The notes under the pieces: generated by a model
The model's database searches: none
Told to the model about the DNA's origin: nothing
What the model saw: only the letters and a program-made list of their open reading frames with translations
From: a phage
DNA: 64,000 bases
Direction: 5' to 3' (one strand)
NCBI GenBank assembly: GCA_014435945.1
Contig: GCA_014435945.1_4088.1
Translations under genes and position numbers: made by a program
Part shown: positions 1,181 to 19,978 of the stretch, piece by piece
Numbering within the stretch: position 1 is the first letter of the stretch
How the letters are laid out: every line of letters starts with the position of its first letter

Positions 1181-1378
1181 ATGCGTATTTTAACTCAAGA
1201 AGAGCACAACCACACACTCATATCCAACATGGCATATATCCTACATATGTCACATATCCGTGGTATTGCATATAAGCGTGAATTGGTTATGAAACTTTTC
1301 ATAGGAACTAACTATCAAGAAAAGTATATCGAACTATACTTACAAGAATTACGAAGGGACATAAAAGGTAGACTATGA
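1181..1378 (+). CDS. small protein, tandem paralog family 1 (GTNYQE motif)
   Basis: motif FIGTNYQEKY; first gene of array; stop overlaps next start. Confidence 0.65.
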   Translation: MRILTQEEHNHTLISNMAYILHMSHIRGIAYKRELVMKLFIGTNYQEKYIELYLQELRRDIKGRL

Positions 1379-1575
1379 AAATGCGTATTTTAAATAAAGA
1401 AGATTATCAAGAACTGTTACGTAAAAACATGGTAAAGATTTATAACACAGACACAAACTTAGAACGAATTGAGTTATACCTTTTGATTACATTGGGAACA
1501 AGCTATCAGGGAAGATGGGTGATTCAATATATGGATGCATTGAAAAATGAAATATTATCCACGAGGAAACAATGA
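1375..1575 (+). CDS. small protein, tandem paralog family 1
   Basis: motif LGTSYQGRW; ATGA overlaps both sides. Confidence 0.65.
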   Translation: MKMRILNKEDYQELLRKNMVKIYNTDTNLERIELYLLITLGTSYQGRWVIQYMDALKNEILSTRKQ

Positions 1576-1781
1576 AAACTATAACACGAACCCAATCATA
1601 CGGTCTTATCTTGAGATACATGGACTTAATGTTGGATATCAGAAAAGACCTTCCTAAAACTGCAATTGAAGTTGCAAGAGCAGAGATCCGCATGTTGGCT
1701 GTACTGAACACAAACCATCAGGAAGAGTATGTTGACGATTGGATTCGATTTTTAATAGAAGATATTAAGAGGAAACTATGA
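1572..1781 (+). CDS. small protein, tandem paralog family 1
   Basis: motif LNTNHQEEY; ATGA overlaps. Confidence 0.65.
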   Translation: MKTITRTQSYGLILRYMDLMLDIRKDLPKTAIEVARAEIRMLAVLNTNHQEEYVDDWIRFLIEDIKRKL

Positions 1782-1990
1782 TTTTTTTAACACCAGAAGA
1801 ATATAAGATACGTTTTGTTTCTGTCCAGAATAAAATCTTAATTATATACAATTCAAATGCAGACCTTAACTTATCAAGGGTATTAGAAAAAGATTTACTT
1901 ATGGGTGCATTTTTGGATACAGACTTTCAGGTGTATTATGTAGGGGAATACTTAATTGCACTCCAGAATTACATTAAGAGTAAACTATGA
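1778..1990 (+). CDS. small protein, tandem paralog family 1
   Basis: motif FLDTDFQVYY; ATGA overlaps. Confidence 0.65.
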   Translation: MIFLTPEEYKIRFVSVQNKILIIYNSNADLNLSRVLEKDLLMGAFLDTDFQVYYVGEYLIALQNYIKSKL

Positions 1991-2199
1991 ATAGCATTAA
2001 CTCAAATCTATATACCGAACGCGTCGCTGCCAGACAACTTGAAATTCTCATAGTATATGAAGAGACTGATGATTTAAACTTAGCATTAGTATTGGAAAAT
2101 GATATACTATTGGGTGCATTCCTCGGCACAGACTATCAGGAGCACTTCTTGAATGAGTATATAATTGCACTCCAGAAATACATTAAGAGCAAACTATGA
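1987..2199 (+). CDS. small protein, tandem paralog family 1
   Basis: motif LGTDYQEHF; C-terminus near-identical to previous gene (IALQKYIKSKL). Confidence 0.65.
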   Translation: MNSINSNLYTERVAARQLEILIVYEETDDLNLALVLENDILLGAFLGTDYQEHFLNEYIIALQKYIKSKL

Positions 2200-2414
2200 A
2201 ACATTTAAGTAATTACGAGAAGAATAAAATTATCGTTGCTGCAATAAACAAATATTTTACACTTCCTCACACAGAAGGTTTATGTGTAAGGGAACACAGG
2301 ATAAACACCACCGATATACGCATGATGGCTGTACTGGGGACGAACTTTCAGGAAGAGTATGTTGTTGCACACATAGTTGCCCTCACTGATTTAATAAGGG
2401 ACAAATGCAAATGA
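2196..2414 (+). CDS. small protein, tandem paralog family 1
   Basis: motif LGTNFQEEY. Confidence 0.65.
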   Translation: MKHLSNYEKNKIIVAAINKYFTLPHTEGLCVREHRINTTDIRMMAVLGTNFQEEYVVAHIVALTDLIRDKCK

Positions 2415-2629
2415 AAGACATAAACACTCAAGAATATCTTAAACGATTAGAACAAGGGAAGAACTTTAGACTTCAAGTTTACGATGATGAATCACTAACA
2501 TCCAATGAAAAGTATGTTATACTAACAGACTCAACATTAATACCATTTGTAGGAACAAACTATCAGGAGGTTATGGTAGACAACCACATCACGGCCTTAA
2601 AATGTCATGTCAGGGATTTAGGTAAATGA
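2405..2629 (+). CDS. small protein, tandem paralog family 1
   Basis: motif VGTNYQEVM. Confidence 0.65.
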   Translation: MQMKDINTQEYLKRLEQGKNFRLQVYDDESLTSNEKYVILTDSTLIPFVGTNYQEVMVDNHITALKCHVRDLGK

Positions 2630-2883
2630 AACACTTAACTGATGATGAATTTGAAACTATAATTCGTAAACTAACCCCCATCACAAGGATAGTCTACGGT
2701 GACCCCAGCCTTACATGGAACCAAATGCGAGCTAAAGTTAATGAGCTATGGTTGCTGTACTTTATGGGGACTCAATATCAAGATAAGTTTTGCACAGAAT
2801 ATATCGAACAATTAACGAATGTTATACAGGATAAACTAGATGATTATTTGCTCACAAAACATGAAGACTTTATCAGGAGTTGA
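2626..2883 (+). CDS. small protein, tandem paralog family 1
   Basis: motif MGTQYQDKF. Confidence 0.65.
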   Translation: MKHLTDDEFETIIRKLTPITRIVYGDPSLTWNQMRAKVNELWLLYFMGTQYQDKFCTEYIEQLTNVIQDKLDDYLLTKHEDFIRS

Positions 2884-3112
2884 GTATCAAACTGCCCTAT
2901 TCTCTTTAATCCATACCCTTAGAAAAAACAATGCCTTACATGGTGCACCTGAAGTGGATGTTATCAACGGTGAACTTTATCTTATGAAATTCATTGGAAC
3001 AAACTATCAAGATCTGTTCATTCAACGATACTTATCAGCATTAAGAAACCAAATCCAATATAAAACCATCAAGGCCAAAAAAGAATGGAATAAACAATGC
3101 GACACAGACTAA
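2861..3112 (+). CDS. small protein, tandem paralog family 1
   Basis: motif IGTNYQDLF; start set to internal ATG (MKTLSGVEY) by family N-terminal pattern; ORF-track start 2840. Confidence 0.55.
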   Translation: MKTLSGVEYQTALFSLIHTLRKNNALHGAPEVDVINGELYLMKFIGTNYQDLFIQRYLSALRNQIQYKTIKAKKEWNKQCDTD

Positions 3113-3348
3113 ATCACAAAATGTATTGTAAACTATTACAGACACTGGCACAGAAACACTATGACACGGTATCTGAAATATTACCCTATGATATCATGCG
3201 TTTACTTCACTGTGAGGCCGAGATGCTTGTACTGATGACAGGCACAGATAAAAAAGCAATTGCCAAATCAATAGATATGTTCATCGAAGCACAATGTCAA
3301 CACATTAGAACCGAGATATGGAGGCGAGAGAATGATAACCCTAAATGA
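3097..3348 (+). CDS. small protein, tandem paralog family 1 (divergent)
   Basis: motif degenerated to MTGTDKKAI; same size and position in array. Confidence 0.55.
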   Translation: MRHRLNHKMYCKLLQTLAQKHYDTVSEILPYDIMRLLHCEAEMLVLMTGTDKKAIAKSIDMFIEAQCQHIRTEIWRRENDNPK

Positions 3349-3547
3349 GTATCAGTATCATTGGAGGTTACAAGCTATAAGAAGGAAAGTTGTTAGTATT
3401 TCTTTAGACAAGTCTATTGCACAAGAGGACAAATGTGTTATAATAGCTGAAATGAAGTTGGGTGCTTTCGTAGGAACAAACTATCAAAACATCTACACTG
3501 ACGTATTGTTAAGTGCCTTACGTAACAAGGTGATATCAAAAGAATGA
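3332..3547 (+). CDS. small protein, tandem paralog family 1
   Basis: motif VGTNYQNIY. Confidence 0.65.
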   Translation: MITLNEYQYHWRLQAIRRKVVSISLDKSIAQEDKCVIIAEMKLGAFVGTNYQNIYTDVLLSALRNKVISKE

Positions 3548-3762
3548 GAAAATTACAAGGCTTTGAATACATCAGACTCCTGAAAACATGTGCCAACAGA
3601 AGAGTAAAGATTCAATCTGATAAGAGCATCCCTGCCAACCTAAAACATGCAATGATAGCTGAACTCTATGCAGGGGCACTCATAGGGACAAACTATCAAC
3701 AAATGTATATAGACATGTGGGTTGATGCATTAGTCAAGGAGATCCAAAGTAAATGCAAATGA
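3544..3762 (+). CDS. small protein, tandem paralog family 1
   Basis: motif IGTNYQQMY. Confidence 0.65.
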   Translation: MRKLQGFEYIRLLKTCANRRVKIQSDKSIPANLKHAMIAELYAGALIGTNYQQMYIDMWVDALVKEIQSKCK

Positions 3763-3971
3763 TTAATTTAAGTAAAGATGAATATTATGATCGTCTTGCA
3801 AAAACTTATCCAGCACGTAACGCCGTTTATAATAGTAACATTATTGAACGCTCAAAGAAGTTGATTGTAGTGAATGAGATTAAGATGCTTTCAGTCTTAG
3901 GAACAAACTATCAAGAGAATGCTGTACTGTTGTTAATTGATGCCCTCCAGAGAGAGATACAAAGTAAATGA
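3753..3971 (+). CDS. small protein, tandem paralog family 1
   Basis: motif LGTNYQENA. Confidence 0.65.
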   Translation: MQMINLSKDEYYDRLAKTYPARNAVYNSNIIERSKKLIVVNEIKMLSVLGTNYQENAVLLLIDALQREIQSK

Positions 3972-4204
3972 TTAATTTATCTTTCCATGAATATCAAAAA
4001 CGTTTAAATGCATCAAGGGATATAAGGATTCAAATCTTCAATAACAAAAAATTGAAACCTGACACCAGAAGAATCAAAATAATAGAAGCAGAGTTATGCA
4101 ACTTCCTGGGGACGAACCATCAGGAAGGTAAGATAAAAAACTATCTTAGAGAACTAATGAATTGTATCGAAAATAAATGCGATGCTTTGGAGAATAAAAA
4201 ATGA
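3968..4204 (+). CDS. small protein, tandem paralog family 1
   Basis: motif LGTNHQEGK. Confidence 0.65.
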   Translation: MINLSFHEYQKRLNASRDIRIQIFNNKKLKPDTRRIKIIEAELCNFLGTNHQEGKIKNYLRELMNCIENKCDALENKK

Positions 4205-4458
4205 TCAATTTAAGTAAAGATGAATATACCGAGCGTATGACAAAAATCTCACCTAAACGTAATGCAATCTATTACAGCCAAGAAATTCCACACAGTAAGA
4301 AGATGATTATGTATCGTGAGTTAAAGATGGGTATGTTCTTAGGAACAAACTATCAAGAACCAGAAGTAAATCGCTTAATAAATGAATTACTCATGGAAAT
4401 CAGAGGTAAGCTGTACTTTCATCAAATGACCCAGCCACTGAGGTGTACTAAGAAATGA
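4201..4458 (+). CDS. small protein, tandem paralog family 1
   Basis: motif LGTNYQEPE. Confidence 0.65.
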   Translation: MINLSKDEYTERMTKISPKRNAIYYSQEIPHSKKMIMYRELKMGMFLGTNYQEPEVNRLINELLMEIRGKLYFHQMTQPLRCTKK

Positions 4459-4670
4459 TCAACATCACATTGCAAGAAAGATTCATCCGAATCAACTATG
4501 CAATTACCAAATTAGATGCTACTATAGACAACCAAAGTTTACCGTTCAAAACAAGAATGATATTAGAGTGCGAAGCCAAGTTAGGTGTACTGTTAGGGAC
4601 GCAACACCAACAACGATATGTGGAAATCTGGATTGATCTTTTAACCCAAAATGCACATGAGAGAATGTAA
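4455..4670 (+). CDS. small protein, tandem paralog family 1
   Basis: motif LGTQHQQRY. Confidence 0.65.
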   Translation: MINITLQERFIRINYAITKLDATIDNQSLPFKTRMILECEAKLGVLLGTQHQQRYVEIWIDLLTQNAHERM

Positions 4671-4901
4671 ATGCAAAAGGAAATGATATACTTAACACAT
4701 GATGAATTTCAAGAGAAGATGTTAAAAGCCAATAACATTACTCTTAAGTTCGTTCCAAATCAATCAATATATGAAATGTCTGCGAATGTATTGTTTCAGA
4801 AGCTACCATACGTTCTTGGAACTGATAAACAAGAATTTATGGTTCAAAATATGATTGAGCATCTTGCAATGAGTATTATGGAAAAAGTAAATGCAAAATG
4901 A
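4671..4901 (+). CDS. small protein, tandem paralog family 1
   Basis: motif LGTDKQEFM preceded by VLFQKLPY. Confidence 0.65.
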   Translation: MQKEMIYLTHDEFQEKMLKANNITLKFVPNQSIYEMSANVLFQKLPYVLGTDKQEFMVQNMIEHLAMSIMEKVNAK

Positions 4902-5133
4902 AATGAAATACTTAACATATAATGAATACGTCGAGAGATTAGTTAGTGCCAAGAGATATGCCAATCAACTTCCTAATGATCCAAACCAAACCCCAGAGGA
5001 AAAGAATGCGGAAGCTCTATTCCAAGCACTACCATACCTTCTTGGAACTGATAGGCAGGAGTATCACGTTGAACGTATAATTAAATCTCTTAAAATCACT
5101 ATTAAGGAAAAAGTAAATGCAAAAGCAAAATGA
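4891..5133 (+). CDS. small protein, tandem paralog family 1
   Basis: motif LGTDRQEYH preceded by ALFQALPY. Confidence 0.65.
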   Translation: MQNEMKYLTYNEYVERLVSAKRYANQLPNDPNQTPEEKNAEALFQALPYLLGTDRQEYHVERIIKSLKITIKEKVNAKAK

Positions 5134-5380
5134 AATGAAATACTTAACAGACGATGAGTTAAAAGAACGATTAATTAAATCCAGAAAACTTACAAATCAA
5201 CTTCCAATCGACACAAACAAGTCACATGCCGAAAGGAGTGCAGAAGTTTTATACATTCAACTCCTGTACTTTCTTGGAACTGACAGACAAGAGTATTACA
5301 TTGAAAGTATGCTTCGATATCTTAAATTCTCTATAAAGGAAAAGGTACATGCTCAAGAATTTAAAAATCCTAACAGTTAA
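5117..5380 (+). CDS. small protein, tandem paralog family 1
   Basis: motif LGTDRQEYY. Confidence 0.65.
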   Translation: MQKQNEMKYLTDDELKERLIKSRKLTNQLPIDTNKSHAERSAEVLYIQLLYFLGTDRQEYYIESMLRYLKFSIKEKVHAQEFKNPNS

Positions 5381-5591
5381 TGAATATCATAAGATTGTAA
5401 TGAAAACTAATAGTGAAATTTCTAAAAAATCAAACCCAAAGTACATACTGGAACACACATTCGAAGAACGTCAATTAGCTCTAGTTGAAGCAAAACTTCT
5501 TGCACTCCTAGGAACAAACTATCAGGAAGAATACATCAGAAAACTAATATACCTTTTAACTAAACACATCAGGAAAAGAAAAAAAGCATGA
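5349..5591 (+). CDS. small protein, tandem paralog family 1
   Basis: motif LGTNYQEEY. Confidence 0.65.
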   Translation: MLKNLKILTVNEYHKIVMKTNSEISKKSNPKYILEHTFEERQLALVEAKLLALLGTNYQEEYIRKLIYLLTKHIRKRKKA

Positions 5592-5818
5592 AACACTTGA
5601 CAGATGATGAACATGGGCTTATAGTAATGGATGTAATCAACATCGAATACAAAAAGTTGATACGCTACCGTTGTTATGAAGATAAGCAACTCGTTCTAGC
5701 AGAACAGAAGTTGTTTCGACTCTTAAACACAAACTTCCAAGCACAATACGAAGAATCGTATTTGTACCTACTGTCGAGGAAAGCAAAAAGAGATTATGAA
5801 AATTTTAAACCACAGTGA
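5588..5818 (+). CDS. small protein, tandem paralog family 1
   Basis: motif LNTNFQAQY. Confidence 0.6.
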   Translation: MKHLTDDEHGLIVMDVINIEYKKLIRYRCYEDKQLVLAEQKLFRLLNTNFQAQYEESYLYLLSRKAKRDYENFKPQ

Positions 5819-6011
5819 ACAAACAGAATTGTTAATCTTTAATACAAGTAAATTCTTAAACATAACATTGTCTGATATAGATGAGGATGAAAAAGAGTTA
5901 CTTAGAGCAGATTTAAGAGTTCTTTTATATGTTGGAACTAACTTCCAAGAGCAATTCGTTGAGGACTACATCGATGAACTTAAAGAATCTGTACTGAGAA
6001 CATGCAAATGA
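5796..6011 (+). CDS. small protein, tandem paralog family 1
   Basis: motif VGTNFQEQF. Confidence 0.65.
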   Translation: MKILNHSEQTELLIFNTSKFLNITLSDIDEDEKELLRADLRVLLYVGTNFQEQFVEDYIDELKESVLRTCK

Positions 6012-6235
6012 AAATCCTTTCACCAAGTGAATACCACGAACTATTAAGTAGTTTAATTCTAAAATTGTATATAGCAAAGACCACAGATTTACCTGATGAA
6101 GAAAAAAATATTCTAATGAGTGAAATCTATGTTAATTCTACCCTAGGGACTAACTATCAAGAATGTAATATTAATGATTACATCAATGAACTAAAAAGGT
6201 TTATCCAATGCAAATGCGAATCATTACCGAAGTAG
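6002..6235 (+). CDS. small protein, tandem paralog family 1
   Basis: motif LGTNYQECN. Confidence 0.65.
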   Translation: MQMKILSPSEYHELLSSLILKLYIAKTTDLPDEEKNILMSEIYVNSTLGTNYQECNINDYINELKRFIQCKCESLPK

Positions 6236-6450
6236 AATACCTAACAATCATAAATGGACTGTTTTCGAAGTTATTTGCCATTAACACATCAAAACTTCCA
6301 GATACTGATAAAATTATTAAGTTAAATGAAATCTACGTTCAAGCTACTCTAGGAACAAACTATCAAGAAGCCAATGTGTATAATTACATTAATACACTCA
6401 AAAGGGTAATACAATTAAAATGCACAGACAGCACACACACAAACCCCTAG
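6208..6450 (+). CDS. small protein, tandem paralog family 1
   Basis: motif LGTNYQEAN; close paralog of previous gene. Confidence 0.65.
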   Translation: MQMRIITEVEYLTIINGLFSKLFAINTSKLPDTDKIIKLNEIYVQATLGTNYQEANVYNYINTLKRVIQLKCTDSTHTNP

Positions 6451-9102: not shown

Positions 9103-9457
9103 AAAAGTAATATTTCTTTTGAATACAAGAAGCTCTTTATATAAGGAATTCAAAGATAATGATGGTTCTTTTAAACCATTATGTATAGAATTCAATGATT
9201 TAATTACAGATGCATTGTTTGAATTTTCAGAGAAATATCAAGATACCGTGTTTGGTGTTAAGAATGTTATTAGTCCAAGTTCAAGGAAGATAACGTTATC
9301 TCATTTTACATTTGACAATAAAGATTTATTCAGTTATAATCCTAGTACATCTTTATATTTTATTCCTAAAGGAGAAAAGAATAGTCCTATTCATTACGGA
9401 TGGATTATATCTTATACAATAAATGGAACGGAGTATCCTATCAAATGGCACGATTAG
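9068..9457 (+). CDS. hypothetical protein (129 aa)
   Basis: ORF in tight series; overlaps upstream gene by about 35 nt. Confidence 0.55.
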   Translation: MNMNPEIVQDLKKVIFLLNTRSSLYKEFKDNDGSFKPLCIEFNDLITDALFEFSEKYQDTVFGVKNVISPSSRKITLSHFTFDNKDLFSYNPSTSLYFIPKGEKNSPIHYGWIISYTINGTEYPIKWHD

Positions 9458-9597
9458 GGAGTGGAGATTATAATATGAATATATTATTAAGAAATATTAA
9501 TGCAGATTATTGTGTATGGGTTAAGAATCGAGATATGATGTATTATGATTTTTATTTAGATTGTGCCATTAAGCGTTTTTTAAGAGAAGAACATTAA
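9445..9597 (+). CDS. hypothetical small protein
   Basis: ORF-track ORF 9400..9597 trimmed to internal ATG; start uncertain. Confidence 0.4.
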   Translation: MARLGSGDYNMNILLRNINADYCVWVKNRDMMYYDFYLDCAIKRFLREEH

Positions 9598-9779
9598 TGA
9601 AAGACGTTAATACAAAAGCAATAAATGATTTAAATGATTCTTTATTAGTAAGTATCAAGATGTATTACAATATACATTTAAAGGGTGGTATTGATGATTA
9701 CAATTATTATCTTTCATTAGTTACAATAGAACATTTAAATTATATAGATCATTTATTACATCCAAATCCACCAATTTAA
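9597..9779 (+). CDS. hypothetical small protein (60 aa)
   Basis: ATG overlaps upstream TAA. Confidence 0.5.
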   Translation: MKDVNTKAINDLNDSLLVSIKMYYNIHLKGGIDDYNYYLSLVTIEHLNYIDHLLHPNPPI

Positions 9780-9790
9780 GGAATACCAAT

Positions 9791-10120
9791 ATGAATAAAA
9801 TTATTTTAGCTCTAACATTTATTTTATCAATGTTCTCTAATACAGTACAGGCCGCTGATTATGAAGTATATCAATTTGATTGCAGATTACAAAACAATGA
9901 TAAAATTGATATATTTTTACATAGCACAGAAATTCCGTATTTGCAAATTGAGTCCACAAAGTACATTTATTTTGGTGAGAATTCAGTACAGGAATTTTTA
10001 TTCAAGCACACATCAGAAGATGTAATTGTATCATTACAATACGTTGATGCATCATTATCGTTAATGCATTTCAAGAACGCAAAAGGTTTAGTTACAGTGC
10101 TTAAATGCACAAGGGTATAA
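9791..10120 (+). CDS. predicted secreted protein with signal peptide
   Basis: N-terminus MNKIILALTFILSMFSNTVQA then AD: typical Sec signal with AxA cleavage site. Confidence 0.6.
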   Translation: MNKIILALTFILSMFSNTVQAADYEVYQFDCRLQNNDKIDIFLHSTEIPYLQIESTKYIYFGENSVQEFLFKHTSEDVIVSLQYVDASLSLMHFKNAKGLVTVLKCTRV

Positions 10121-10121
10121 T

Positions 10122-10682
10122 ATGAATGATATTGAGTTATTGGTACATAAGATTTGCACAATATCGTTAGTGCTGAACAATGCGAATACAGTACAGAGTT
10201 CCCTTTTAAGAATTAATAAAGTTGGGAGTAGTTTATATTTGGAAGTAAAAGCTGGTTTTGCAGGTCAGTACAATGATAAAATCAAAGAAGAAGTTAAGGG
10301 AAGTGAAGATGCTTTCATTGAGGTTTGTGCAACAGTTGGTTCAAATCCAATTTCAGTATCACCGTTAATGCGAAATGAAAATTCAGAATTTAATTCCATT
10401 TTTGAAGGTTATTTGTGGTATAATGCTGGAGATGATTATTTTATATATCAGAATTCCAAAACGGATTACAGTGAAGAAGGTATAAAATTCATTGATCCTT
10501 ACAATGAAGCAGAAGTATTTCAGACATCCCTAATATACAATGCAAATCAAATGAAGTATCTTATGTTGTTTAGTACAATGCATTTGAATCCATTGAAAGA
10601 TAATTTAAAATTTTTCATTCGTTTAGAATTAGTTGATATTGCTTATGATCTTTTAATGCAAGGATACAGTTATGAAGTATAA
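10122..10682 (+). CDS. hypothetical protein, paralog family 2
   Basis: motif EAEVFQTSLIYNA; C-terminus LLMQGYSYEV shared with 10759..11265. Confidence 0.65.
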   Translation: MNDIELLVHKICTISLVLNNANTVQSSLLRINKVGSSLYLEVKAGFAGQYNDKIKEEVKGSEDAFIEVCATVGSNPISVSPLMRNENSEFNSIFEGYLWYNAGDDYFIYQNSKTDYSEEGIKFIDPYNEAEVFQTSLIYNANQMKYLMLFSTMHLNPLKDNLKFFIRLELVDIAYDLLMQGYSYEV

Positions 10683-10752
10683 AATGCTTTATACAAAAGA
10701 TATGATTTATGTTGAATTAGAAGGCAATGACGATGTATCCATCAATAGGTAA
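10672..10752 (+). pseudogene. truncated N-terminal remnant of a family-2 paralog (26 codons)
   Basis: encodes MKYKMLYTKDMIYVELEGNDDVSINR, matching the N-terminus of 11255..11566 (MKYKMLYTLTLIYVELESDSDAW); junction sequence duplicated at 11235-11285. Confidence 0.6.
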
Positions 10753-10758
10753 TAATAT

Positions 10759-11265
10759 ATGAATGAGATAGAATTATTAGCACACAAGATTAGTACAGTA
10801 ATGCTTATGCTCAAGAATAATCATTCTATGCATAAGTACATTTTTATAGGTGATTTACGCATAGAAGATAGATATGATAAATTATCGTTTATGTTTAAAG
10901 ATGAAAGTAATGCAAAAGTTTGTTTTGCAGCATTTGCCCAAGGCAATCCAGAACAAGCATCTCCTGTTATATACGAAAATAGTGAAGGGTATTTGTGGGT
11001 CAACACAAACGATTATTTCTTTTATGTTTTGAAACAAGATGATGAAGTAGAAGCACGAATTGATTTAATTGATATTAGTACAGATTGTAGTGCTGAATTA
11101 TTTCAGAAATCGTTATTATACAGTCCTCGTCAAATACATTATCTAAAGTTATTCAGTTCATTGTACGCGAATCCTTTAATTAAGGGTTTTAAATTTTATA
11201 TCAAAATTCCGCACCTTTCAAACGTTTATGATTTATTAATGCAAGGATATAGTTATGAAGTATAA
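10759..11265 (+). CDS. hypothetical protein, paralog family 2
   Basis: motif SAELFQKSLLYSP; ends LLMQGYSYEV. Confidence 0.65.
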   Translation: MNEIELLAHKISTVMLMLKNNHSMHKYIFIGDLRIEDRYDKLSFMFKDESNAKVCFAAFAQGNPEQASPVIYENSEGYLWVNTNDYFFYVLKQDDEVEARIDLIDISTDCSAELFQKSLLYSPRQIHYLKLFSSLYANPLIKGFKFYIKIPHLSNVYDLLMQGYSYEV

Positions 11266-11566
11266 AATGCTTTATACATTAACATTAATATATGTAGAAT
11301 TAGAATCCGATTCAGATGCATGGAATTTGGTTAAAGAGGTCGATACCAATCAATGGTACATGGCAAATTTAGACGCACAGGTTGTTACGGATTATTTTAT
11401 AGATTTTAATACATTATCTGAAGAAGAATTTTTCCAAATGCAATTGGTGGTTGACATGTACGGGCATGACATGGTAACATTACGAAATATACAGAAAGCC
11501 GTTAATGAAATCCAAAGCAAGAAAGATTATGAGGTAGGAGAGTATTATGAGATCGACGTACAGTGA
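11255..11566 (+). CDS. hypothetical protein, paralog family 2
   Basis: motif SEEEFFQMQLVVD. Confidence 0.65.
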   Translation: MKYKMLYTLTLIYVELESDSDAWNLVKEVDTNQWYMANLDAQVVTDYFIDFNTLSEEEFFQMQLVVDMYGHDMVTLRNIQKAVNEIQSKKDYEVGEYYEIDVQ

Positions 11567-11904
11567 AAGCAATGAGTACAATAGTTATGATATATAAAAT
11601 GCTTTATACAGTATCGGGGATATATGTAGAATTAGAACCCGATTATCCAGATGGATGGAATTTTATTAAACGCTCCGATAGAAATACATGGCAAATGGAA
11701 CATTTGGATAATGACGTAATATTAGACAATTTTGTGGATTTTAATACATTATCAGAAGAAGAATTCTTCCAAATGCAATGTGTGCTTGACACAAAAGGAT
11801 TTGATGTGCTATTATTAAAGAATATACAGAAAGCTGTTAACGAATTAATATCCAATGACGAGTTAGGCAAAGTGAGGCTGTTCCATGATCTCGAAGTACA
11901 ATGA
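11563..11904 (+). CDS. hypothetical protein, paralog family 2
   Basis: motif SEEEFFQMQCVLD; close paralog of previous gene. Confidence 0.65.
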   Translation: MKAMSTIVMIYKMLYTVSGIYVELEPDYPDGWNFIKRSDRNTWQMEHLDNDVILDNFVDFNTLSEEEFFQMQCVLDTKGFDVLLLKNIQKAVNELISNDELGKVRLFHDLEVQ

Positions 11905-12460
11905 AAGCAATGAGTACAATGAAATTCAGTACACCTACGCTAATGCAATCCTTATGGGACAAAAGTTAGCTTGTATTGTTGCAGCCTTATATAATGCACA
12001 GAAAGATTACAAGCGTCACATCCACAAATGTATTGGTATTATTCCATCGAAGTACAATACATATATTGCGTGCACGAGTCATTTTGATAAACGATTCAAT
12101 ACACCTGATACCCCAAATGCCCATAGTGTTATTGGTCTTTTGGATTTTGCCCCTGGTGCTGTTATTGGAAAGAATGATTTAGAGTACGCATGGTATAATA
12201 AAAATGCCCCGTTAGTAATGGTAAAATATGATACAGAAACGAACAAAGCAATAGAGTACAATACATATAAATCAGAGGAAGAATTTTTCCAAGGTTCATT
12301 GCTTGTACCAGTGCGATTGTTATTTTATAATGTCATAATGAGTACAGTACACGATAGTCCATTACACAAGAATCACAAAATTAATTTCAATTTTTGTGCT
12401 TATGCGATTGATGGTGTTTATGAGTGCTTAATGGAGGTATTGAGTTATGAAGCTGAATAA
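11885..12460 (+). CDS. hypothetical protein, paralog family 2
   Basis: motif SEEEFFQGSLLVP. Confidence 0.65.
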   Translation: MISKYNESNEYNEIQYTYANAILMGQKLACIVAALYNAQKDYKRHIHKCIGIIPSKYNTYIACTSHFDKRFNTPDTPNAHSVIGLLDFAPGAVIGKNDLEYAWYNKNAPLVMVKYDTETNKAIEYNTYKSEEEFFQGSLLVPVRLLFYNVIMSTVHDSPLHKNHKINFNFCAYAIDGVYECLMEVLSYEAE

Positions 12461-12788
12461 TACATTTGATATTAAGAAGTTAAGAGAATGGTTTTATAGT
12501 ATTGAAATTGAAGCCATTCCTTATCATAGATATGAACAAAGTGATTTACAAAGTATTGATATCAGAGAGTTGTACAAATATTATCAGAGTGCATTAGAGA
12601 TGCATAAGTTATTTTTGAGTACAAATTTCATCCTAAATTACAATTTTGAGGAATTTAATAATTATAATTTAGTACAGAAATATGTAGTAGCAAAGTACAT
12701 GTACAATCAAGGTATCAAAGGTTGCCTCGAATTCAATACCGTTCTTATTTTAGTTGAGGTAATTTTATGCACCGCATGTCTGATTTAG
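12447..12788 (+). CDS. hypothetical protein
   Basis: ORF in series; only a degenerate motif (NFEEFNNYNLV). Confidence 0.5.
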   Translation: MKLNNTFDIKKLREWFYSIEIEAIPYHRYEQSDLQSIDIRELYKYYQSALEMHKLFLSTNFILNYNFEEFNNYNLVQKYVVAKYMYNQGIKGCLEFNTVLILVEVILCTACLI

Positions 12789-13264
12789 AGTTCAGTTTAG
12801 ATGCAGCCTTTAAATTTGTTCACAAAATAGAAACAATATATCGTACATTATGTGCAATAACATCAGTATCAAAAGAGTTTGATGTTGGTGAAAGGTATCA
12901 GGTGTGGAATAATTCATTTTATAATAAAGAACATTCTGCGACGGCATTTTATATTTTAGCATTTAATCCCAGCAATTGTTACCCAGAGAAGCATGAACGT
13001 TATCCAAATGACGACATGTGGTTTGAGTACAAAGAAGATGCTGATATGTCGTCAATTGTAGTTCCTGATGATTTTAATGCACAAGATTTAACAGAAGAGT
13101 GGTGGTTCCAGCAGAATTTAGTACATGATGATATTGATTTATTTTTCTATATAGTGTTTAAAATGCTTTATCACAACAATATAGTTAAAGAAAGTTTATC
13201 GTTTTCATGTCTATATATTGATGATTTGTACAATGAAATTCAAATAAACATGCCTGTATCGTAA
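12767..13264 (+). CDS. hypothetical protein, paralog family 2
   Basis: motif TEEWWFQQNLVHDD. Confidence 0.65.
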   Translation: MHRMSDLEFSLDAAFKFVHKIETIYRTLCAITSVSKEFDVGERYQVWNNSFYNKEHSATAFYILAFNPSNCYPEKHERYPNDDMWFEYKEDADMSSIVVPDDFNAQDLTEEWWFQQNLVHDDIDLFFYIVFKMLYHNNIVKESLSFSCLYIDDLYNEIQINMPVS

Positions 13265-13280
13265 GATATGGGCTTTTTTT
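13253..13280 (+). terminator. possible rho-independent terminator
   Basis: 8-bp stem with two G-U pairs and GTAA loop around stop codon, followed by CTTTTTTTGTTT. Confidence 0.4.
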
Positions 13281-13282
13281 GT

Positions 13283-13311
13283 TTGACACGAGTACAAATG
13301 CATGGTACAAT
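13283..13311 (+). promoter_or_regulatory. sigma70-like promoter
   Basis: TTGACA 13283-13288, 17-nt spacer, TACAAT 13306-13311. Confidence 0.5.
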
Positions 13312-13337
13312 GTGTAATCATTTTTAAGGAGATACCT

Positions 13338-13886
13338 ATGGAAAATTTTAAAATACCAGATGATTTCAATTCAGTACAAGAGATGGTACACAAGGTTCAT
13401 TACATTTTTAATGAATTAATTATTGCCAATTCATCCAGTATGCAAATTGAGTTAAAGGATATTGATAGAGAAGAAGTTTTTTTGGGTTCCCCAAATTCAA
13501 TCATTCCTTTTTATGGTCAGGACCGTTTATGGTTCATGAGAGATACCCCAATTGACAAATACAAAATACAAAACAAATCAGAGAATGATTTTTCTTATTA
13601 TTATCTTAAAATTTCATTACAAGTACAAGATATTAGTGCAATGGGTGAAATAAGTGCAGAGGATTATTTTCAGTACAGTACATTGCATAGTCCAGAAGAA
13701 ATCTTTGTTGCTATGCTCGTTGCAAAATTGAGCACAGTTGATTTTGGGACATACCCACATAAATCATTCAAGATTATTATTCCTGCATTCGTCGATCTTT
13801 ATGATTTCATTGTGCACAAGAAAGAAAGTACAGTGTACGATATGTATCGTTCAAATTTCAGTATGATTACAGGGGCATTAAAATGA
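13338..13886 (+). CDS. hypothetical protein, paralog family 2
   Basis: motif AEDYFQYSTLHSP; start at ATG with AAGGAG RBS (ORF-track start 13302 lies in promoter). Confidence 0.65.
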   Translation: MENFKIPDDFNSVQEMVHKVHYIFNELIIANSSSMQIELKDIDREEVFLGSPNSIIPFYGQDRLWFMRDTPIDKYKIQNKSENDFSYYYLKISLQVQDISAMGEISAEDYFQYSTLHSPEEIFVAMLVAKLSTVDFGTYPHKSFKIIIPAFVDLYDFIVHKKESTVYDMYRSNFSMITGALK

Positions 13887-15570: not shown

Positions 15571-16125
15571 ATGAGTTCAATGAGTTTATTAGATACATTA
15601 GAAAAAGACAGAAGTGCCATTAAGAGATTAAAAAATCTTGTCCAGAGCATTGCGAACAACGCTGAGAAGTTCAGTGACAATCTTAGTATAGGTGATATAA
15701 CCAGTACAGGAATAAAATCCCTGAAGTCAGATTTATTAATTCATAAGGAAGATAAATTATTATTTGTATTGAGTTCAGATTTAATGGTTGCAAGTAATGG
15801 TTTCAATTCGATATCAACACAAGATGGTAGCACAGGATTATATCTATCACAGGGTGTCCAGACGAACGAACAAAAGTGTTTTAGTTCAGGAGTACAGAAT
15901 CCCTTTAAGTTCAGTACAGAACAAGCTACAGAGCTTTTAGATGCATCAGAAGAGATGTTATTTCAGTACAAAACGGTTCATACAGATTTTGAATTACGAT
16001 GCATGTACGCTGTTAAGCATTATGTTCAGGAGTTCGAGGATTTAAGTTATCTTTTAGTTCGAACGAATACAAAGAACATTGGTGCATTAGAAGATTACAT
16101 TTCAAAAGTTGTTAAAGGGTGCTAA
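15571..16125 (+). CDS. hypothetical protein, paralog family 2
   Basis: motif SEEMLFQYKTVHTD; start MSSMSLLD with AAGGAAAG RBS (ORF-track start 15505). Confidence 0.6.
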   Translation: MSSMSLLDTLEKDRSAIKRLKNLVQSIANNAEKFSDNLSIGDITSTGIKSLKSDLLIHKEDKLLFVLSSDLMVASNGFNSISTQDGSTGLYLSQGVQTNEQKCFSSGVQNPFKFSTEQATELLDASEEMLFQYKTVHTDFELRCMYAVKHYVQEFEDLSYLLVRTNTKNIGALEDYISKVVKGC

Positions 16126-16134
16126 AGGGTGCTG

Positions 16135-16900: not shown

Positions 16901-17278
16901 ATGGAAATAAAATATAAAGAATTTTGTATAGGGACATGGATGTACACGGGTGAGTTGATTACGTGTTGTAATTTGTACAAAGGTGATTTAAACTACACAA
17001 GGGGCAAGGTTATAAAGTTCTGGAATTCACAATTTTATTTAATGGATCTTGGTACTGGATTTAGTTGTAAAGCAACCGATATGCTGGACTATACCTTAAT
17101 GGATGATGCTGCACTATTTCAGGAGTCATTAGTATTTGACAAGAAGTACATCTGTACATTAGAAGAGATTGTTGAAATCCAGCGTAGAATTAAATGTATT
17201 CACAGGGAATGTATAGATAAATGGTGTAAAACTGGTGAAACTAATTTTAGTAATCATTTCAATCTAGGGGAAGAGTGA
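16901..17278 (+). CDS. hypothetical protein, paralog family 2 (LFQESLVFDKKY subgroup)
   Basis: motif DAALFQESLVFDKKY; first ATG used (ORF-track start 16865 is TTG). Confidence 0.6.
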   Translation: MEIKYKEFCIGTWMYTGELITCCNLYKGDLNYTRGKVIKFWNSQFYLMDLGTGFSCKATDMLDYTLMDDAALFQESLVFDKKYICTLEEIVEIQRRIKCIHRECIDKWCKTGETNFSNHFNLGEE

Positions 17279-17634
17279 TGGAATTTGATTTTGTAATATC
17301 AGTACATTCTTTTAAGAACAGTTTTCAGTACTTTTGTAATTTAAACAAAGGTGATTTAATGCACAGTGCAAATGAGTATATTCATTACACTCAGGGTAAA
17401 TTTACATTCATTGATTACAGTTCATTACAGTATCCGCATCAGGATATGCCGGATTATACAGTACTTGATGAGGCTGAACTATTTCAGGAGTCATTAGTAT
17501 TTGATAAGAAGTACTTGTGTACATTTGAAGAAGTAATTGCAATACAAAATGAAATGAAAGAGTATGACTCTTTGAATAAAGGCAATGTCAGTATTAATCA
17601 AGAATACAAATTCAATATAGGAATTCCAGAATGA
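17275..17634 (+). CDS. hypothetical protein, paralog family 2 (LFQESLVFDKKY subgroup)
   Basis: motif EAELFQESLVFDKKYLCTFEEV. Confidence 0.65.
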   Translation: MMEFDFVISVHSFKNSFQYFCNLNKGDLMHSANEYIHYTQGKFTFIDYSSLQYPHQDMPDYTVLDEAELFQESLVFDKKYLCTFEEVIAIQNEMKEYDSLNKGNVSINQEYKFNIGIPE

Positions 17635-17975
17635 CATTTGATTTTTCTATGTTTATACCTAAGATTAGTACTTCACTGGAAGTGTATTGCAATCTTAACA
17701 AAGGTGATTATGAACACAAAATGGATCAGTACATTAAATTTAATGGTTCTTACTTTAGCTTCATTGATTATCAGACCAAAGGAACAGTTGTAGAAAATAT
17801 GAAAGACTATACAACAGTACAGGGTGAGGCTGAAATATTTCAAGAGTCATTAATATTTGACAAGAAGTACTTGTGTACACTAGAGGAAGTAATTGAACTC
17901 CAACAGAAGATGAAAGAATATAGAAGAATCTGTATAGAGACTGATTCCAAAGATAGGTATTGTTTTAAGCTATGA
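17631..17975 (+). CDS. hypothetical protein, paralog family 2 (LFQESLVFDKKY subgroup)
   Basis: motif EAEIFQESLIFDKKYLCTLEEV. Confidence 0.65.
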   Translation: MTFDFSMFIPKISTSLEVYCNLNKGDYEHKMDQYIKFNGSYFSFIDYQTKGTVVENMKDYTTVQGEAEIFQESLIFDKKYLCTLEEVIELQQKMKEYRRICIETDSKDRYCFKL

Positions 17976-18158: not shown

Positions 18159-18629
18159 ATGAGTTTTGCAAGAGCATTAGAAATTGCTAAGTTAATTGAT
18201 TTATGTAAAAAGGAAATAGTACTCAATCGACTCAATGGGTATCTATTCAAGGAAGGTAAAGCTTATTGTCGAATGATATACGATGACAGTAGTGAGTACA
18301 TTCACATGTACGAAGAAAACTTAGATTCTTCTGAAACAACACTCACTGGGTGTGATGTTAATCTGGAAGATAATTACATGTACTTCTGTCGTGATGCTGA
18401 TATTTTAATACAATATACTGACATTATAACTGGTGCAGCAGAAAAACATCTTCCGTATTCAGTACTGGATAATGACTGGGGAAGTGAAGAGTTCTACTTC
18501 CAGCAGAATACTATCTACGAGGAATATGTGCTTGACAAGCTTGTCATTCTGTGGTACTTTAATAATACCGATTGTCCTAGCTTCTATCTGGACTTGGATC
18601 TACTACGAGTTATTAAAGAGGATATATGA
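18159..18629 (+). CDS. hypothetical protein, paralog family 2 (WGSEEYYFQ subgroup)
   Basis: N-terminus MSFARALEIAK; motif WGSEEFYFQQNTIYEE; LVILWYF. Confidence 0.65.
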   Translation: MSFARALEIAKLIDLCKKEIVLNRLNGYLFKEGKAYCRMIYDDSSEYIHMYEENLDSSETTLTGCDVNLEDNYMYFCRDADILIQYTDIITGAAEKHLPYSVLDNDWGSEEFYFQQNTIYEEYVLDKLVILWYFNNTDCPSFYLDLDLLRVIKEDI

Positions 18630-19066
18630 GTTTAGCAAGTGCACTTAAACTGGCACACAAAATACATCACTTCCACGATAACATAAAAAGTGGTTTCTAT
18701 GGTGATAAAGTAAGTGCATTTGGTAATGAGTATTATCTATCAGGTATAAAGACATACTCTGATGATATTTTACTTATGGGCCATGATAAAGACAATACTA
18801 TACAGTACTCTTCATGTAGTCAATATACTAGTTTTTTTGTATATATTCCAGGTACTAAGATTACTTTTGACACATCAAATACACCTGTTGACTTCGGGGT
18901 ACTTGATGGGCCGTGGGGTACTGAAGAGTATTACTTCCAACAGAGTCTTATTTTTAACCAAGAAATGCTTGATTCCTTGGTTGTTTTGTGGTACTTTAAG
19001 GAATTGAATTTTGAACCCTTCTTCCTTGACTGGGGAGCATGTGAATATTTAAGTACAGGGGATTAG
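18626..19066 (+). CDS. hypothetical protein, paralog family 2 (WGSEEYYFQ subgroup)
   Basis: motif WGTEEYYFQQSLIFNQ; VVLWYFK. Confidence 0.65.
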   Translation: MSLASALKLAHKIHHFHDNIKSGFYGDKVSAFGNEYYLSGIKTYSDDILLMGHDKDNTIQYSSCSQYTSFFVYIPGTKITFDTSNTPVDFGVLDGPWGTEEYYFQQSLIFNQEMLDSLVVLWYFKELNFEPFFLDWGACEYLSTGD

Positions 19067-19068
19067 TA

Positions 19069-19557
19069 ATGTCATTACAAAGTGCATTGAAAGAAGCAAA
19101 GAAGATTCATGAGTACATGATTATGGTACAAGAAGGTTCAGTGCCTGGTGTGTATAAAACATCTGATACTGAATTTTTTGTAAAAGACCGCGACGATTAT
19201 GATGAGTCAGAGATACATGCAGAAACGTTAGTACTACACACTGATACGGGTGATACTGATGACTGTGAATATCATATGTACAATCAGTACATTAGTTATT
19301 GTAGAGATGAAGATATTATAATTTACAGCCCTGATTACGATGATTATGACACAATCATTCCGTATTCAGTACTGGAAGGTCCGTGGGATAGTGAAGAATA
19401 TTACTTCCAGAACAGTACTGTGTACAATGAAGAAGAATTAGATGTTATTGTAATTATGTGGTACTTTAAAAGTATTGGTTCTGGTAGTTTCTATTTCGAT
19501 TATGAATACGTAGAGAATACTGTAGGGGAAGATAATGTCATTACGAAGTGCTCTTGA
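19069..19557 (+). CDS. hypothetical protein, paralog family 2 (WGSEEYYFQ subgroup)
   Basis: motif WDSEEYYFQNSTVYNEE; VIMWYFK. Confidence 0.65.
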   Translation: MSLQSALKEAKKIHEYMIMVQEGSVPGVYKTSDTEFFVKDRDDYDESEIHAETLVLHTDTGDTDDCEYHMYNQYISYCRDEDIIIYSPDYDDYDTIIPYSVLEGPWDSEEYYFQNSTVYNEEELDVIVIMWYFKSIGSGSFYFDYEYVENTVGEDNVITKCS

Positions 19558-19978
19558 TAAAGCAAAAGAACTACAGGCATATATTGAAGATATTAAGGCT
19601 GGGAAGTTCGAAGAAGTATACAAAGCCGAGAATGGTAACTACTACAAGGATATTGATTTTGCTACAACTACAGTTATTCTTGGGTTGAATTCCAAAAGTC
19701 CCGCAGATTTTTCACAATACAATCCAGATGCAGAATTTATCAGTTATGCTTATGGTGGTGAAATCCGTTTTTATAATCGCAGTAGACCGTTAAAATTGAA
19801 CTTTGAAGTACTGAAAGGTCCGTGGGATAGTGAAGAATACTACTTTCAGAATAGTACTTTGTATGATGATGAAGTAATAGATACTTTAGTTATTATGTGG
19901 TACTTTAAAAGTATTGATAGTACAAGATTTTATTTGGATTATGAATATGTACGTGAAGTATATAAGGGTAAACGATGA
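19535..19978 (+). CDS. hypothetical protein, paralog family 2 (WGSEEYYFQ subgroup)
   Basis: motif WDSEEYYFQNSTLYDDE; VIMWYFK. Confidence 0.65.
   Translation: MSLRSALDKAKELQAYIEDIKAGKFEEVYKAENGNYYKDIDFATTTVILGLNSKSPADFSQYNPDAEFISYAYGGEIRFYNRSRPLKLNFEVLKGPWDSEEYYFQNSTLYDDEVIDTLVIMWYFKSIDSTRFYLDYEYVREVYKGKR

Follow-up and report, generated by a model that had tools for sequence, protein, structure and literature searches.

The window analysed here, a 64,000-nt stretch of phage DNA, is 94-99% identical to Asteriusvirus phages by megablast, which places it among the 121Q/PBECO4-like jumbo phages of E. coli. Between 10122 and 12460 lies an array of genes belonging to two families, here called A and B, together with several short fragments of such genes (Table 1). 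PHROG profile matches are significant and full-length throughout, with A1, A2 and C falling into phrog_19795 (E from 5.5e-33 to 8.4e-85) and B1 and B2 into phrog_33987 (E from 2.8e-40 to 7.6e-51), both of them families of unknown function. A Pfam search of the array genes returned sub-threshold noise only and no domain, and published full texts on Asteriusvirus, 121Q and PBECO4, searched for paralogs and duplications, yielded no account of the A/B family or of this locus. A TEV-type protease site in the family motif E-E-x-[YF]-F-Q-x-S was also considered; it was rejected, as residues 129-136, which contain the motif, form a confident helix and the position after Q varies across the family.

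Table 1. Genes, junction copies and gene remnants of the A/B array, and the 10-bp repeat further downstream (positions in the window)
Feature	Positions	Strand	Description
A1	10122-10682	+	186 aa; first gene of the A pair (slot 1), class A1 allele; phrog_19795, E=3.8e-50
A2	10759-11265	+	168 aa; slot 2, allele class A2; phrog_19795, E=5.5e-33
B1	11255-11566	+	103 aa; phrog_33987, E=2.8e-40
B2	11563-11904	+	phrog_33987, E=7.6e-51; likely start 11572, 11587 or 11597
C	11885-12460	+	191 aa; A-family member, source of the C' remnant; phrog_19795, E=8.4e-85
Junction copy 1	10643-10695	+	last 12 codons of A1 (YDLLMQGYSYEV), AAGGA ribosome-binding site, 11-nt stop/start overlap, first 8 codons of B type
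Junction copy 2	11226-11278	+	boundary between A2 end and B1 start; 50/53 nt identical to copy 1
B'	10672-10735	+	64-nt 5' remnant of a B-type gene; bulk of the 26-codon ORF
U''	10733-10752	+	20-nt 3' remnant (ATGTATCCATCAATAGGTAA) of the gene preceding the A slot in PBECO4/UE-S1-type phages
A2 native leader	10747-10758	+	AGGTAATAATAT; identical 12 nt before A2 in phage A4 and contigs L031-L037
C'	11547-11582	+	36-nt remnant of the gene C 5' end, forming the left side of the second joint; 89% identical to 11885-11920
A''	11583-11597	+	15-nt remnant of an A-gene 3' end (AGTTATGATATATAA), forming the right side of the second joint
10-bp unit	16113-16132	+	TAAAGGGTGC, two tandem copies (16113-16122 and 16123-16132) at stop codon/ribosome-binding site

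The A alleles and their junction with B

The units 10120-10756 and 10757-11340 align head-to-tail and end to end, with a period of 637 nt at their starts and 583 nt at their ends. The two A genes they contain have only 42% amino acid identity, and ~45-70% nucleotide identity outside the junction. A third class, A1', typical of PBECO4 and 121Q, is 54-56% identical to A1 and 47% identical to A2 at the protein level. Each of the three also occurs as a single A gene: A1 in Ecwhy_1 and ph0011, A1' in PBECO4 and 121Q, and A2 in A4-like genomes (phage A4 and contigs L031-L037), where it is the only A gene and comes after gene X. Because the classes on both sides of the joint thus also exist alone in other phages, the A1/A2 pair is best read as two stacked alleles (pseudoparalogs) rather than as a duplicate diverging in situ. 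A1 is 97-99% identical in Turkey3, vB_Ec-M-J, WPEC3 and Ecwhy_1, and A2 matches slot 2 of slurp01, JP4 and TH47 at 95-96% of amino acids and 93-100% of nucleotides (60-nt windows), with far more diverged flanking genes. Look-ups of A2 variants retrieved only the A4-like order U-X-A2-B, and no genome came to light with the order predicted for the parent, a PBECO4-type upstream gene directly before A2, or with A2 in slot 1. In IMG/VR, an exact-pattern scan for the parental arrangement or further variants found nothing; protein-guided scans, which covered JGI metagenomes as well, likewise brought up no relatives.

The two A proteins share the C-terminus LLMQGYSYEV, and the end of A1 is repeated almost exactly downstream, as the initial annotation had observed (Table 1). 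The 28 nt at 10668-10695 recur without mismatch at 11251-11278 as a core, AGTTATGAAGTATAAAATGCTTTATACA, and a third copy with 2 mismatches is present at 11583-11610. In keeping with the extended identity that the annotation had expected from a dot-plot, the similarity continues more weakly beyond the core (10643-10738 against 11226-11321, 96 nt at 80%), and none of 100 dinucleotide shuffles reached the match level of the junctions.

This near-identity had been taken as a sign of recency, a reading which is not supported, since the same ~50 nt are kept at the A-end/B-start boundary of 22/22 A genes from 15 genomes, including those where A is single-copy. All 22 genes close with an invariant AGTTATGAAGTA and the stop TAA, and the AAGGA ribosome-binding site is invariant in them as well. 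The similarity is largely explained by several constraints acting together, namely the invariant C-terminal peptide, codon bias, the AAGGA site of the B gene and the 11-nt overlap of the two reading frames. Over the 12-residue tail, 33/36 nt are identical, compared with 28.3 expected for identical residues from the codon usage of this phage (P=0.023), and synonymous codon identity is 9/11 in the tail versus 34/61 in the gene body; occasional gene conversion involving the two copies could equally produce this synonymous excess (P=0.02). A more general caution follows, in that near-identity over a short gene boundary cannot date a duplication if the boundary is under coding and translational constraint.

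The joint between A1 and A2 and other repeats

The gap between A1 and A2 comprises 76 bases (10683-10758). The reading frame that begins within the first junction copy ends after 26 codons (10672-10752, MKYKMLYTKDMIYVELEGNDDVSINR), and past the second copy it runs into the complete B1 gene, both as initially annotated. Its description as a truncated paralog remnant also stands: the short ORF is largely the 5' fragment of a B-type gene, B', left by a tandem duplication/unequal crossover through which the array gained a gene. B' is identical to the intact B gene of phage A4 at 61/64 positions and to those of PBECO4 and UE-S1 at 56/64, compared with 49/64 for B1 and 45/64 for B2 of the window itself. 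The fragment that follows, U'', is dissimilar to the upstream genes U and X of the window and matches the sequence immediately 5' of A1' at 20/20 positions in UE-S1 and 18/20 in PBECO4 and G17. Its first 3 nt (ATG) also belong to B', leaving a microhomology at the joint. In single-A PBECO4, G17, SP27, UE-S1 and others, both halves of the joint are found unjoined, ~620 nt apart and in parental order, i.e., the end of the upstream gene and the A start, then the B start.

The stub frame is intact in 8/8 window-type sequences read, with its stop 6 nt before the A2 start codon. In JP4, slurp01 and TH47, B' has lost 6 nt and is frameshifted by a +1 insertion, which shortens the frame to 14 codons with a stop ~40 nt before A2. 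Genomes with 97-99% identity in this region have GGC, GTC or GAC as codon 18 of the stub, whose last 6 codons are an out-of-frame reading of another gene's end. These features suggest a decaying pseudogene, which probably still loads ribosomes and would free them 6 nt before the A2 start. No stable RNA fold (z=-0.04), Rfam match or nearby terminator-like site was found for the gap, and promoter-like sites are not enriched in the region (69 against 62 expected from shuffles). When every inter-ORF gap of 35 nt or more (34 in total) was scanned against all gene ends, a remnant was detected only in 10683-10758; the joint between B1 and B2 was found separately.

This second scar, C'/A'' (11547-11597), is of the same type as the joint in the gap and records the duplication that gave rise to B1 and B2. 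C' is present in 5/5 two-B genomes read, and A'', together with the next 13 nt, constitutes the third copy of the junction core; in Turkey3, vB_Ec-M-J and Ecwhy_1 it is preserved unmutated as AGTTATGAAGTATAA. B2 is 55-58% identical to B1 and 79% identical to the single B of 121Q. Contigs L021 and L024 are without B2, with 347 bp missing (11564-11910).

A tandem doubling of TAAAGGGTGC at 16113-16132 is confirmed as well, but its interpretation as a footprint of array expansion is not. The repeat sits on the stop codon of the ORF ending at 16125. Block-shuffled sequence contains ~0.29 perfect 10-mer tandems per window, and 14.5% of shuffles have one or more, so the doubling alone is not beyond chance; its variable copy number among relatives nevertheless shows it to be real. 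One copy is present in Turkey3 and TH47, two were read in Ecwhy_1, three are found in CMSTMSU and four in EC.P1, and an equal match length of 351 bp points to two copies in vB_Ec-M-J, WPEC3, WPEC5 and fEgEco12. The proteins on either side are unchanged by copy number. Short variable tandem repeats arise by replication slippage, and the doubling is an independent repeat of that type, unrelated to the duplication scars.

Distribution, origin and age of the joint

The joint was read in 7 related genomes of two sub-lineages, including Turkey3, vB_Ec-M-J, WPEC3, JP4, slurp01 and TH47, and is indicated by the match pattern in 6-7 further records. A single continuous match spans it in 12 phage records and, in addition, in TH47 and the similar ECO103 4-12-1, and it was also read in 5/10 extra assembly contigs that carry the same A2 protein. 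The A1 alleles of the two joint-bearing sub-lineages are 54-55% identical, and the joint of the slurp01 group is 6 nt shorter, with one substitution at the breakpoint; we think it unlikely that the latter represents a second independent event at nearly the same position.

The comparison with related phages that had been proposed shows presence/absence variation of exactly the A2 unit. Ecwhy_1 lacks 10687-11269, which at 583 bp is exactly one repeat period, and 578 bp are absent from G17 and SP27 relative to slurp01. Such unit-free genomes could be either ancestral or deletion derivatives. Along the alignment of the window with slurp01, identity is ~42-83% in A1, rises to 93-100% from ~10730 to ~11240, and 3' of A2 is 50-85% in B and 90-100% in C, with abrupt shifts at the gene boundaries at ~10730, ~11250 and ~11900-11920. 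In this respect the locus is a case of ordinary phage mosaicism, of a well documented kind.

On balance we consider it likely that the gap at 10683-10758 is a novel joint of tandem duplication/unequal crossover, old in age and located in a tightly packed early-gene operon. Read base by base, the sequence on either side shows a single illegitimate exchange at the level of microhomology (ATG, ≤3 nt). This exchange joined nucleotide +64 of a B-type gene to a point ~20 nt short of the stop codon of the gene located 5' of the A slot, so that the duplicated unit consists of the tail of that upstream gene, an entire A gene and the head of B, with the B' stub and the U'' fragment as leftovers of its incomplete ends. 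Duplication may have come first and allelic replacement later, or one unequal crossover between co-infecting phages with different alleles may have achieved both. Once formed, the junction and the B' stub would provide the [U''-A2] unit with direct-repeat flanks of 53-96 nt, and homologous recombination over these flanks, as the natural variants suggest, could remove the unit or restore it precisely in register. Such recombination would account for near-identical phages differing by exactly 583 or 578 bp, and for an A2 block that is 93-100% identical (60-nt windows) between phages in which the adjoining genes share only ~42-85% identity.

The initial annotation had instead proposed a recent segmental duplication within this genome, in which the junction and the stub are fresh copies of the local A-B boundary. 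Two junctions identical at 50/53 nt, and a stub which starts exactly like the downstream gene, are what this would produce, yet we find it very improbable given that A1 and A2 are only 42% identical in amino acids and ~45-70% in nucleotides, that two sub-lineages carry the joint, that the stub resembles the B gene of phage A4 (61/64) more than the window's own B1 (49/64), and that the junction is equally conserved in single-A genomes. The duplication scar itself is therefore real, while its supposed recency is not upheld; to judge from the sequences compared, the duplication is neither recent nor private to the window genome. Nor does a mis-join induced by repeats offer a way out. Assemblers can be misled by short repeats, but 13-14 phage genomes deposited independently of one another share this arrangement, as do 10 metagenome or isolate contigs of separate projects (with the joint read in 5), and the chance of an assembly artefact is practically negligible.

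The remaining alternatives assign a role of their own to the stub or to A2. If the 26-codon ORF were a functional small gene or a leader peptide coupling translation of A2 to that of A1, its retention of the AAGGA site and ATG of a B gene, the window-type stop 6 nt before the A2 start and a frame intact in 8 window-type sequences would all make sense. It is nevertheless improbable that it serves as such: the frame is cut to 14 codons in JP4, slurp01 and TH47, with the stop ~40 nt 5' of A2, codon 18 varies between GGC, GTC and GAC among near-identical genomes, and the last 6 codons come out of frame from the end of another gene. The presence or absence of A2 in close relatives, and its appearance as a 93-100% identical block inside otherwise diverged genomes, could likewise be attributed to an autonomous mobile insertion (homing-endonuclease-type, transposon-like or a 'moron') targeting the A/B junction. 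This seems to us extremely improbable, as A2 is an ordinary member of phrog_19795 like its neighbours and has no nuclease or transposase domain, its flanks are fully accounted for by fragments of neighbouring genes, and terminal inverted repeats are missing, the only inverted repeats being AT-rich chance ones. The gap holds only a weak 9/12 promoter-like match (10727-10756), one of many at chance level in the region, and no terminator-like site.

Returning to the old unequal-crossover joint, a broader extension of it can be imagined, in which the conserved junction and the B'/C' stubs act as portable homology patches for stacking, swapping and shedding alleles, a cassette system without a recombinase, and in which arrays grow mainly by allele capture and less by divergence of copies on site. 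We regard this as speculative and rather unlikely; if true, it would mean that co-infecting Asteriusvirus phages diversify in this way a 36-member early-gene family of presumed host-takeover or anti-defence genes.

Comparison with known systems

The locus reveals no new mechanism and no gene function, and the type of scar is well known. A close counterpart is gene 68 of mycobacteriophage Island3, an extra gene on whose two sides ~50 bp from the end of the upstream gene are repeated, which its authors attributed to recombination between ~50-bp gene-boundary sequences (Pope et al. 2011, PMC3029335). The two cases are alike in having an extra gene between two others with ~50 bp of the upstream gene's 3' end on either side. 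However, the inserted gene in Island3 is an orphan, and here A2 is a family member and an allele of its neighbour; unlike in Island3, the joint also keeps a fragment of a third gene (U''), by which one illegitimate breakpoint is pinned.

Conserved 'linker' sequences at gene boundaries, as envisaged by the modular theory, have been set against illegitimate recombination followed by selection for gene boundaries (refs 21-24 of PMC3029335). The sharp identity changes at gene boundaries and the short sequence conserved across diverged alleles resemble what the linker model describes, but junction conservation has coding and translational reasons here, so that a dedicated recombination role is unneeded. 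Both mechanisms may in fact have operated at this locus, an illegitimate event at the joint and, as the natural variants suggest, homologous exchange at the junction. The linker or modular view is reportedly that of Susskind and Botstein, and the illegitimate-recombination view that of Hendrix and Hatfull.

Poxvirus 'genomic accordions', said to have been described by Elde et al. in 2012, involve tandem gene amplification and collapse under selection. As at this locus, the genes stand in a tandem array of a large dsDNA virus and are gained and lost by recombination between units. An accordion builds up within a few passages and from identical copies, whereas the units here are 42% identical, represent distinct alleles and are known from natural sequences. 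The 10-bp repeat, on the other hand, behaves like other slippage repeats, with 1-4 head-to-tail copies among near-identical genomes; particular to it is its location between two phage genes, where it overlaps a stop codon and a ribosome-binding site and leaves both proteins unaltered.

Members of a gene family that look like paralogs within one genome, of which at least one comes from another lineage, are known as pseudoparalogs and arise by xenologous acquisition. A1 and A2 would fit this description as apparent paralogs of which at least one was acquired from another lineage, with the difference that donor and recipient are here close relatives and that acquisition would have taken place in tandem at the orthologous locus. 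'Paralogs' in other phage arrays may likewise be stacked alleles from different lineages. With an illegitimate joint resolved to single bases, its two parental halves surviving in relatives, and an A2 unit that is still gained or lost in the wild, the locus provides an unusually legible case of how paralog arrays are built in giant phages.

Layout of the locus and the junction repeat

Across 9500-13500 the window is 94-99% identical to GenBank phages (megablast; Escherichia phages vB_Ec-M-J, Turkey3, WPEC3, fEgEco12 and others), and 34/34 matching records are 121Q/PBECO4-like jumbo phages, placed in Asteriusvirus wherever a taxonomy line is given. A Logan contig (L022, SRR1984092), 100% identical across 10659-12500, lies closer to the window than do the deposited phage genomes, among which vB_Ec-M-J ranks first at 98.6%. 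The genes of the locus, including three A-type (A1, A2, C) and two B-type (B1, B2), are tightly packed and most overlap. Given the consensus promoter upstream and the only strong terminator-like hairpin after E, genes U to E probably form a single transcription unit, and the layout of promoters and terminator suggests host-polymerase (early) transcription units.

Features of the locus and of the two duplication scars
Feature	Coordinates	Strand	Remarks
sigma-70 promoter	9312-9340		12/12 consensus (TTGACA-17-TATAAT), within ORF upstream of locus
U	9597-9779	+	
X	9791-10120	+	109 aa; N-terminus resembles signal peptide
A1	10122-10682	+	
stub	10672-10752		26-codon ORF
B'	10672-10735		first 64 nt of B-type gene
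gap	10683-10758		
U''	10733-10752		ATGTATCCATCAATAGGTAA
A2 leader	10747-10758		AGGTAATAATAT; same leader before A2 in phage A4 and A4-like contigs
A2	10759-11265	+	
B1	11255-11566	+	103-codon ORF
C'	11547-11582		36 nt of C head, directly after B1; 89% identical to 11885-11920
A''	11583-11597		final 15 nt of an A gene, between C' and B2
B2	~11587-11904	+	
C	11885-12460	+	
D, then E	E end at 13264	+	
terminator-like hairpin	13252-13273		strong; after E
extended -10 promoter	13283-13311		11/12; directly past hairpin

As the initial annotation had stated, the junction, a boundary of ~50 nt where an A gene ends and a B gene starts, is repeated almost exactly: 50/53 positions are the same in copy 1 (10643-10695) and copy 2 (11226-11278), with a core of 28 nt exact in both and a third copy of this core, with two mismatches, at 11583-11610. 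Matches of this type never arose in shuffled sequence. The short ORF after copy 1 (the stub) and the 103-codon ORF after copy 2 were likewise found as described. Identity between the copies extends to 96 nt at 80%, and the A1 and A2 units align over their full length, but at only about 45-70% identity outside the junction.

Genes X and C also vary among relatives. Gene X is a 331-bp presence/absence unit (9788-10127) with a 9-nt direct repeat on either side, AATATGAAT (9788-9796 and 10119-10127), in which the X and A1 start codons are included; vB_Ec-M-J, WPEC3 and Ecwhy_1 lack the unit, and A4-like phages carry an X homologue before A2 instead. Alleles of gene C differ sharply among close relatives (vB_Ec-M-J 99%, WPEC3 88%, Turkey3 and Ecwhy_1 65%), with indels at 11908-11916, 12005 and 12205-12215.

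Composition of the gap and a second scar

Base-by-base comparison of 14 related phage loci resolved the gap between A1 and A2 into three pieces: a B-gene 5' remnant (B'), a remnant of an upstream gene's 3' end (U'') and the A2 leader. B' is 61/64 identical to the intact B of phage A4 and 56/64 to those of PBECO4 and UE-S1, as against only 49/64 to B1 of its own genome. U'' is 20/20 identical to the final bases of the gene that directly precedes the A slot in UE-S1 (18/20 in PBECO4 and G17), and neither U nor X of the window resembles it. Because the two fragments share an ATG, microhomology at the breakpoint amounts to at most 3 nt. Judged from these alignments, the gap has the form of a tandem-duplication joint, in which the start of a downstream gene has been joined to the end of an upstream one; in PBECO4-type single-A genomes the two halves lie ~620 nt apart, unjoined and in parental order.

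Both a start codon and a ribosome-binding site survive in the stub, whose end lies 6 nt short of A2 in window-type genomes, so that it may still hand ribosomes on to A2. Several features speak against a protein function: codon 18 varies (GGC, GTC or GAC) between genomes that are nearly identical, the final six codons come from the tail of another gene in a different frame, and the slurp01 group has a frameshift in the stub. No stable RNA fold, Rfam match or flanking inverted repeats were found in the gap.

The fragments C' and A'' between B1 and B2 form the joint of a B duplication whose unit consists of the tail of an A gene, B and the head of C. This joint, which the initial annotation had not described, is present in 5/5 two-B genomes read. 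Like A1 and A2, B1 and B2 have diverged (55-58% identical), and B2 resembles the one B gene of 121Q (79%). Two metagenome contigs (L021 and L024), elsewhere 96% identical to the window, lack the B2 unit (347 bp, 11564-11910), indicating that the second duplication is also polymorphic in nature. No further remnants turned up when the 34 inter-ORF gaps measuring 35 nt or more were all scanned, so legible scars are rare in this array.

Age of the duplication and proposed exchange of slot contents

The junction is kept at the end of 22/22 A genes read, including those of single-A genomes (121Q, PBECO4, ph0011, A4, Ecwhy_1). In a constraint test based on the same 12 C-terminal residues and the phage's own codon usage, 33/36 nt of the junction tail were identical, compared to 28.3/36 expected (P=0.023), and codons at identical residues agreed in 9/11 cases in the tail versus 34/61 in the gene body. 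Since the invariant bases double as an AAGGA ribosome-binding site and an 11-nt overlap with the B start, we conclude that junction identity results from constraint and not from youth, gene conversion contributing at most a little.

The repeat and the stub had been taken as footprints of a recent duplication. That they record the recombination by which the array grows stands, but 'recent' does not hold: the A1 and A2 proteins share only 42% identity, the joint is common to two groups of phages, and the junction is kept in single-A genomes. The three allele classes of the A slot (A1, A1' and A2) share 41-56% pairwise identity. This joint could be read in Turkey3, vB_Ec-M-J, WPEC3, JP4, slurp01 and TH47 and in 5/10 further assembly contigs encoding the same A2 protein; 12 phage records match it without a break, as do TH47 and its look-alike ECO103 4-12-1. 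Between the two groups the slot-1 genes (A1 and A1') share just 54-55% identity. The stub of the second (slurp01) group shows a frameshift of +1, the loss of 6 nt from a GATGATGACGATG run and one substitution. These changes represent decay of a scar common to both groups, a separate origin of the joint in that group being unlikely.

Each allele class also occurs as the sole A gene, which suggests that A1 and A2 in the window are alleles stacked side by side: A2 occurs alone in phage A4 and seven A4-like contigs (order U-X-A2-B-D), A1 in Ecwhy_1 and ph0011, and A1' in PBECO4, 121Q, SP27, G17 and UE-S1. An identity profile of the window against slurp01 (60-nt windows) gave about 42-83% over A1, 93-100% from ~10730 to ~11240, which is exactly U'' plus A2, 50-85% over B and 90-100% over C. 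Gain or loss of the unit keeps to the repeat period: Ecwhy_1, otherwise window-type, is without exactly 10687-11269 (583 bp, one period), and G17 and SP27 lack exactly 578 bp at this locus compared with slurp01. We suggest that a single illegitimate event created a spare slot flanked by direct repeats (junction plus B' stub, 53-96 nt), after which homologous recombination between co-infecting relatives swapped slot contents and deleted or re-inserted the unit in register. The first product may have carried a pair of identical genes that were replaced afterwards, or distinct alleles right from the start; each genome lacking the unit may likewise be ancestral or a deletion derivative.

The 10-bp unit TAAAGGGTGC is indeed present twice in tandem (16113-16132), as previously annotated, but its doubling reflects replication slippage at a short repeat, not the gene-adding recombination proposed for it. 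Turkey3 and TH47 have one copy, and two were read in Ecwhy_1; CMSTMSU has three and EC.P1 four, and in vB_Ec-M-J, WPEC3, WPEC5 and fEgEco12 a match length of 351 bp, equal to the window's, implies two. A single copy lets the upstream stop TGA overlap the following ATG, and additional copies leave the C-terminus KVVKGC unchanged.

The gene family and known parallels

An iterated HMM search placed the A and B genes among at least 36 + strand paralogs of one superfamily (7323-35578), with an invariant F-Q inside E-E-x-[YF]-F-Q-x-S. The A and C genes belong to phrog_19795 and the B genes to phrog_33987, both of unknown function in PHROG. A confident AlphaFold model of one member had no relative among solved structures; its only matches were uncharacterised proteins from RaK2-like jumbo phages. 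The locus sits at ~30 kb in vB_Ec-M-J and fEgEco12, a short way past their ~21 kb terminal repeat, and this position, together with the host-type promoters of the region, suggests that its genes are early.

A second, separate repeated-gene family occupies 1279-6366, with more copies to ~7838; ten copies share a conserved 40-nt stretch ending in GGAACAAACTATCAA (peptide LGTNYQ), 200-1200 nt apart (families D1, D7 and D11). More tandem paralog runs, with neighbours 66-83% identical in nucleotide sequence, lie at 17078-17915, 18461-19951 and 4754-5346 (periods of about 360, 440-900 and 230 nt), and no scar remnants were found at their boundaries.

Papers on these phages describe neither the gene family nor the locus. 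The closest published parallel to the A2 locus is the gene 68 insertion of mycobacteriophage Island3, where a ~50-bp repeat of a gene 3' end flanks the extra gene (PMC3029335). A junction-based cassette system diversifying an early-gene family would be a more ambitious and less probable reading, which the data allow but do not require. Both classical accounts of phage mosaicism, exchange at conserved boundaries and illegitimate recombination near gene boundaries (PMC3029335), are visible at this single locus, which is a well-resolved example of a process already known.
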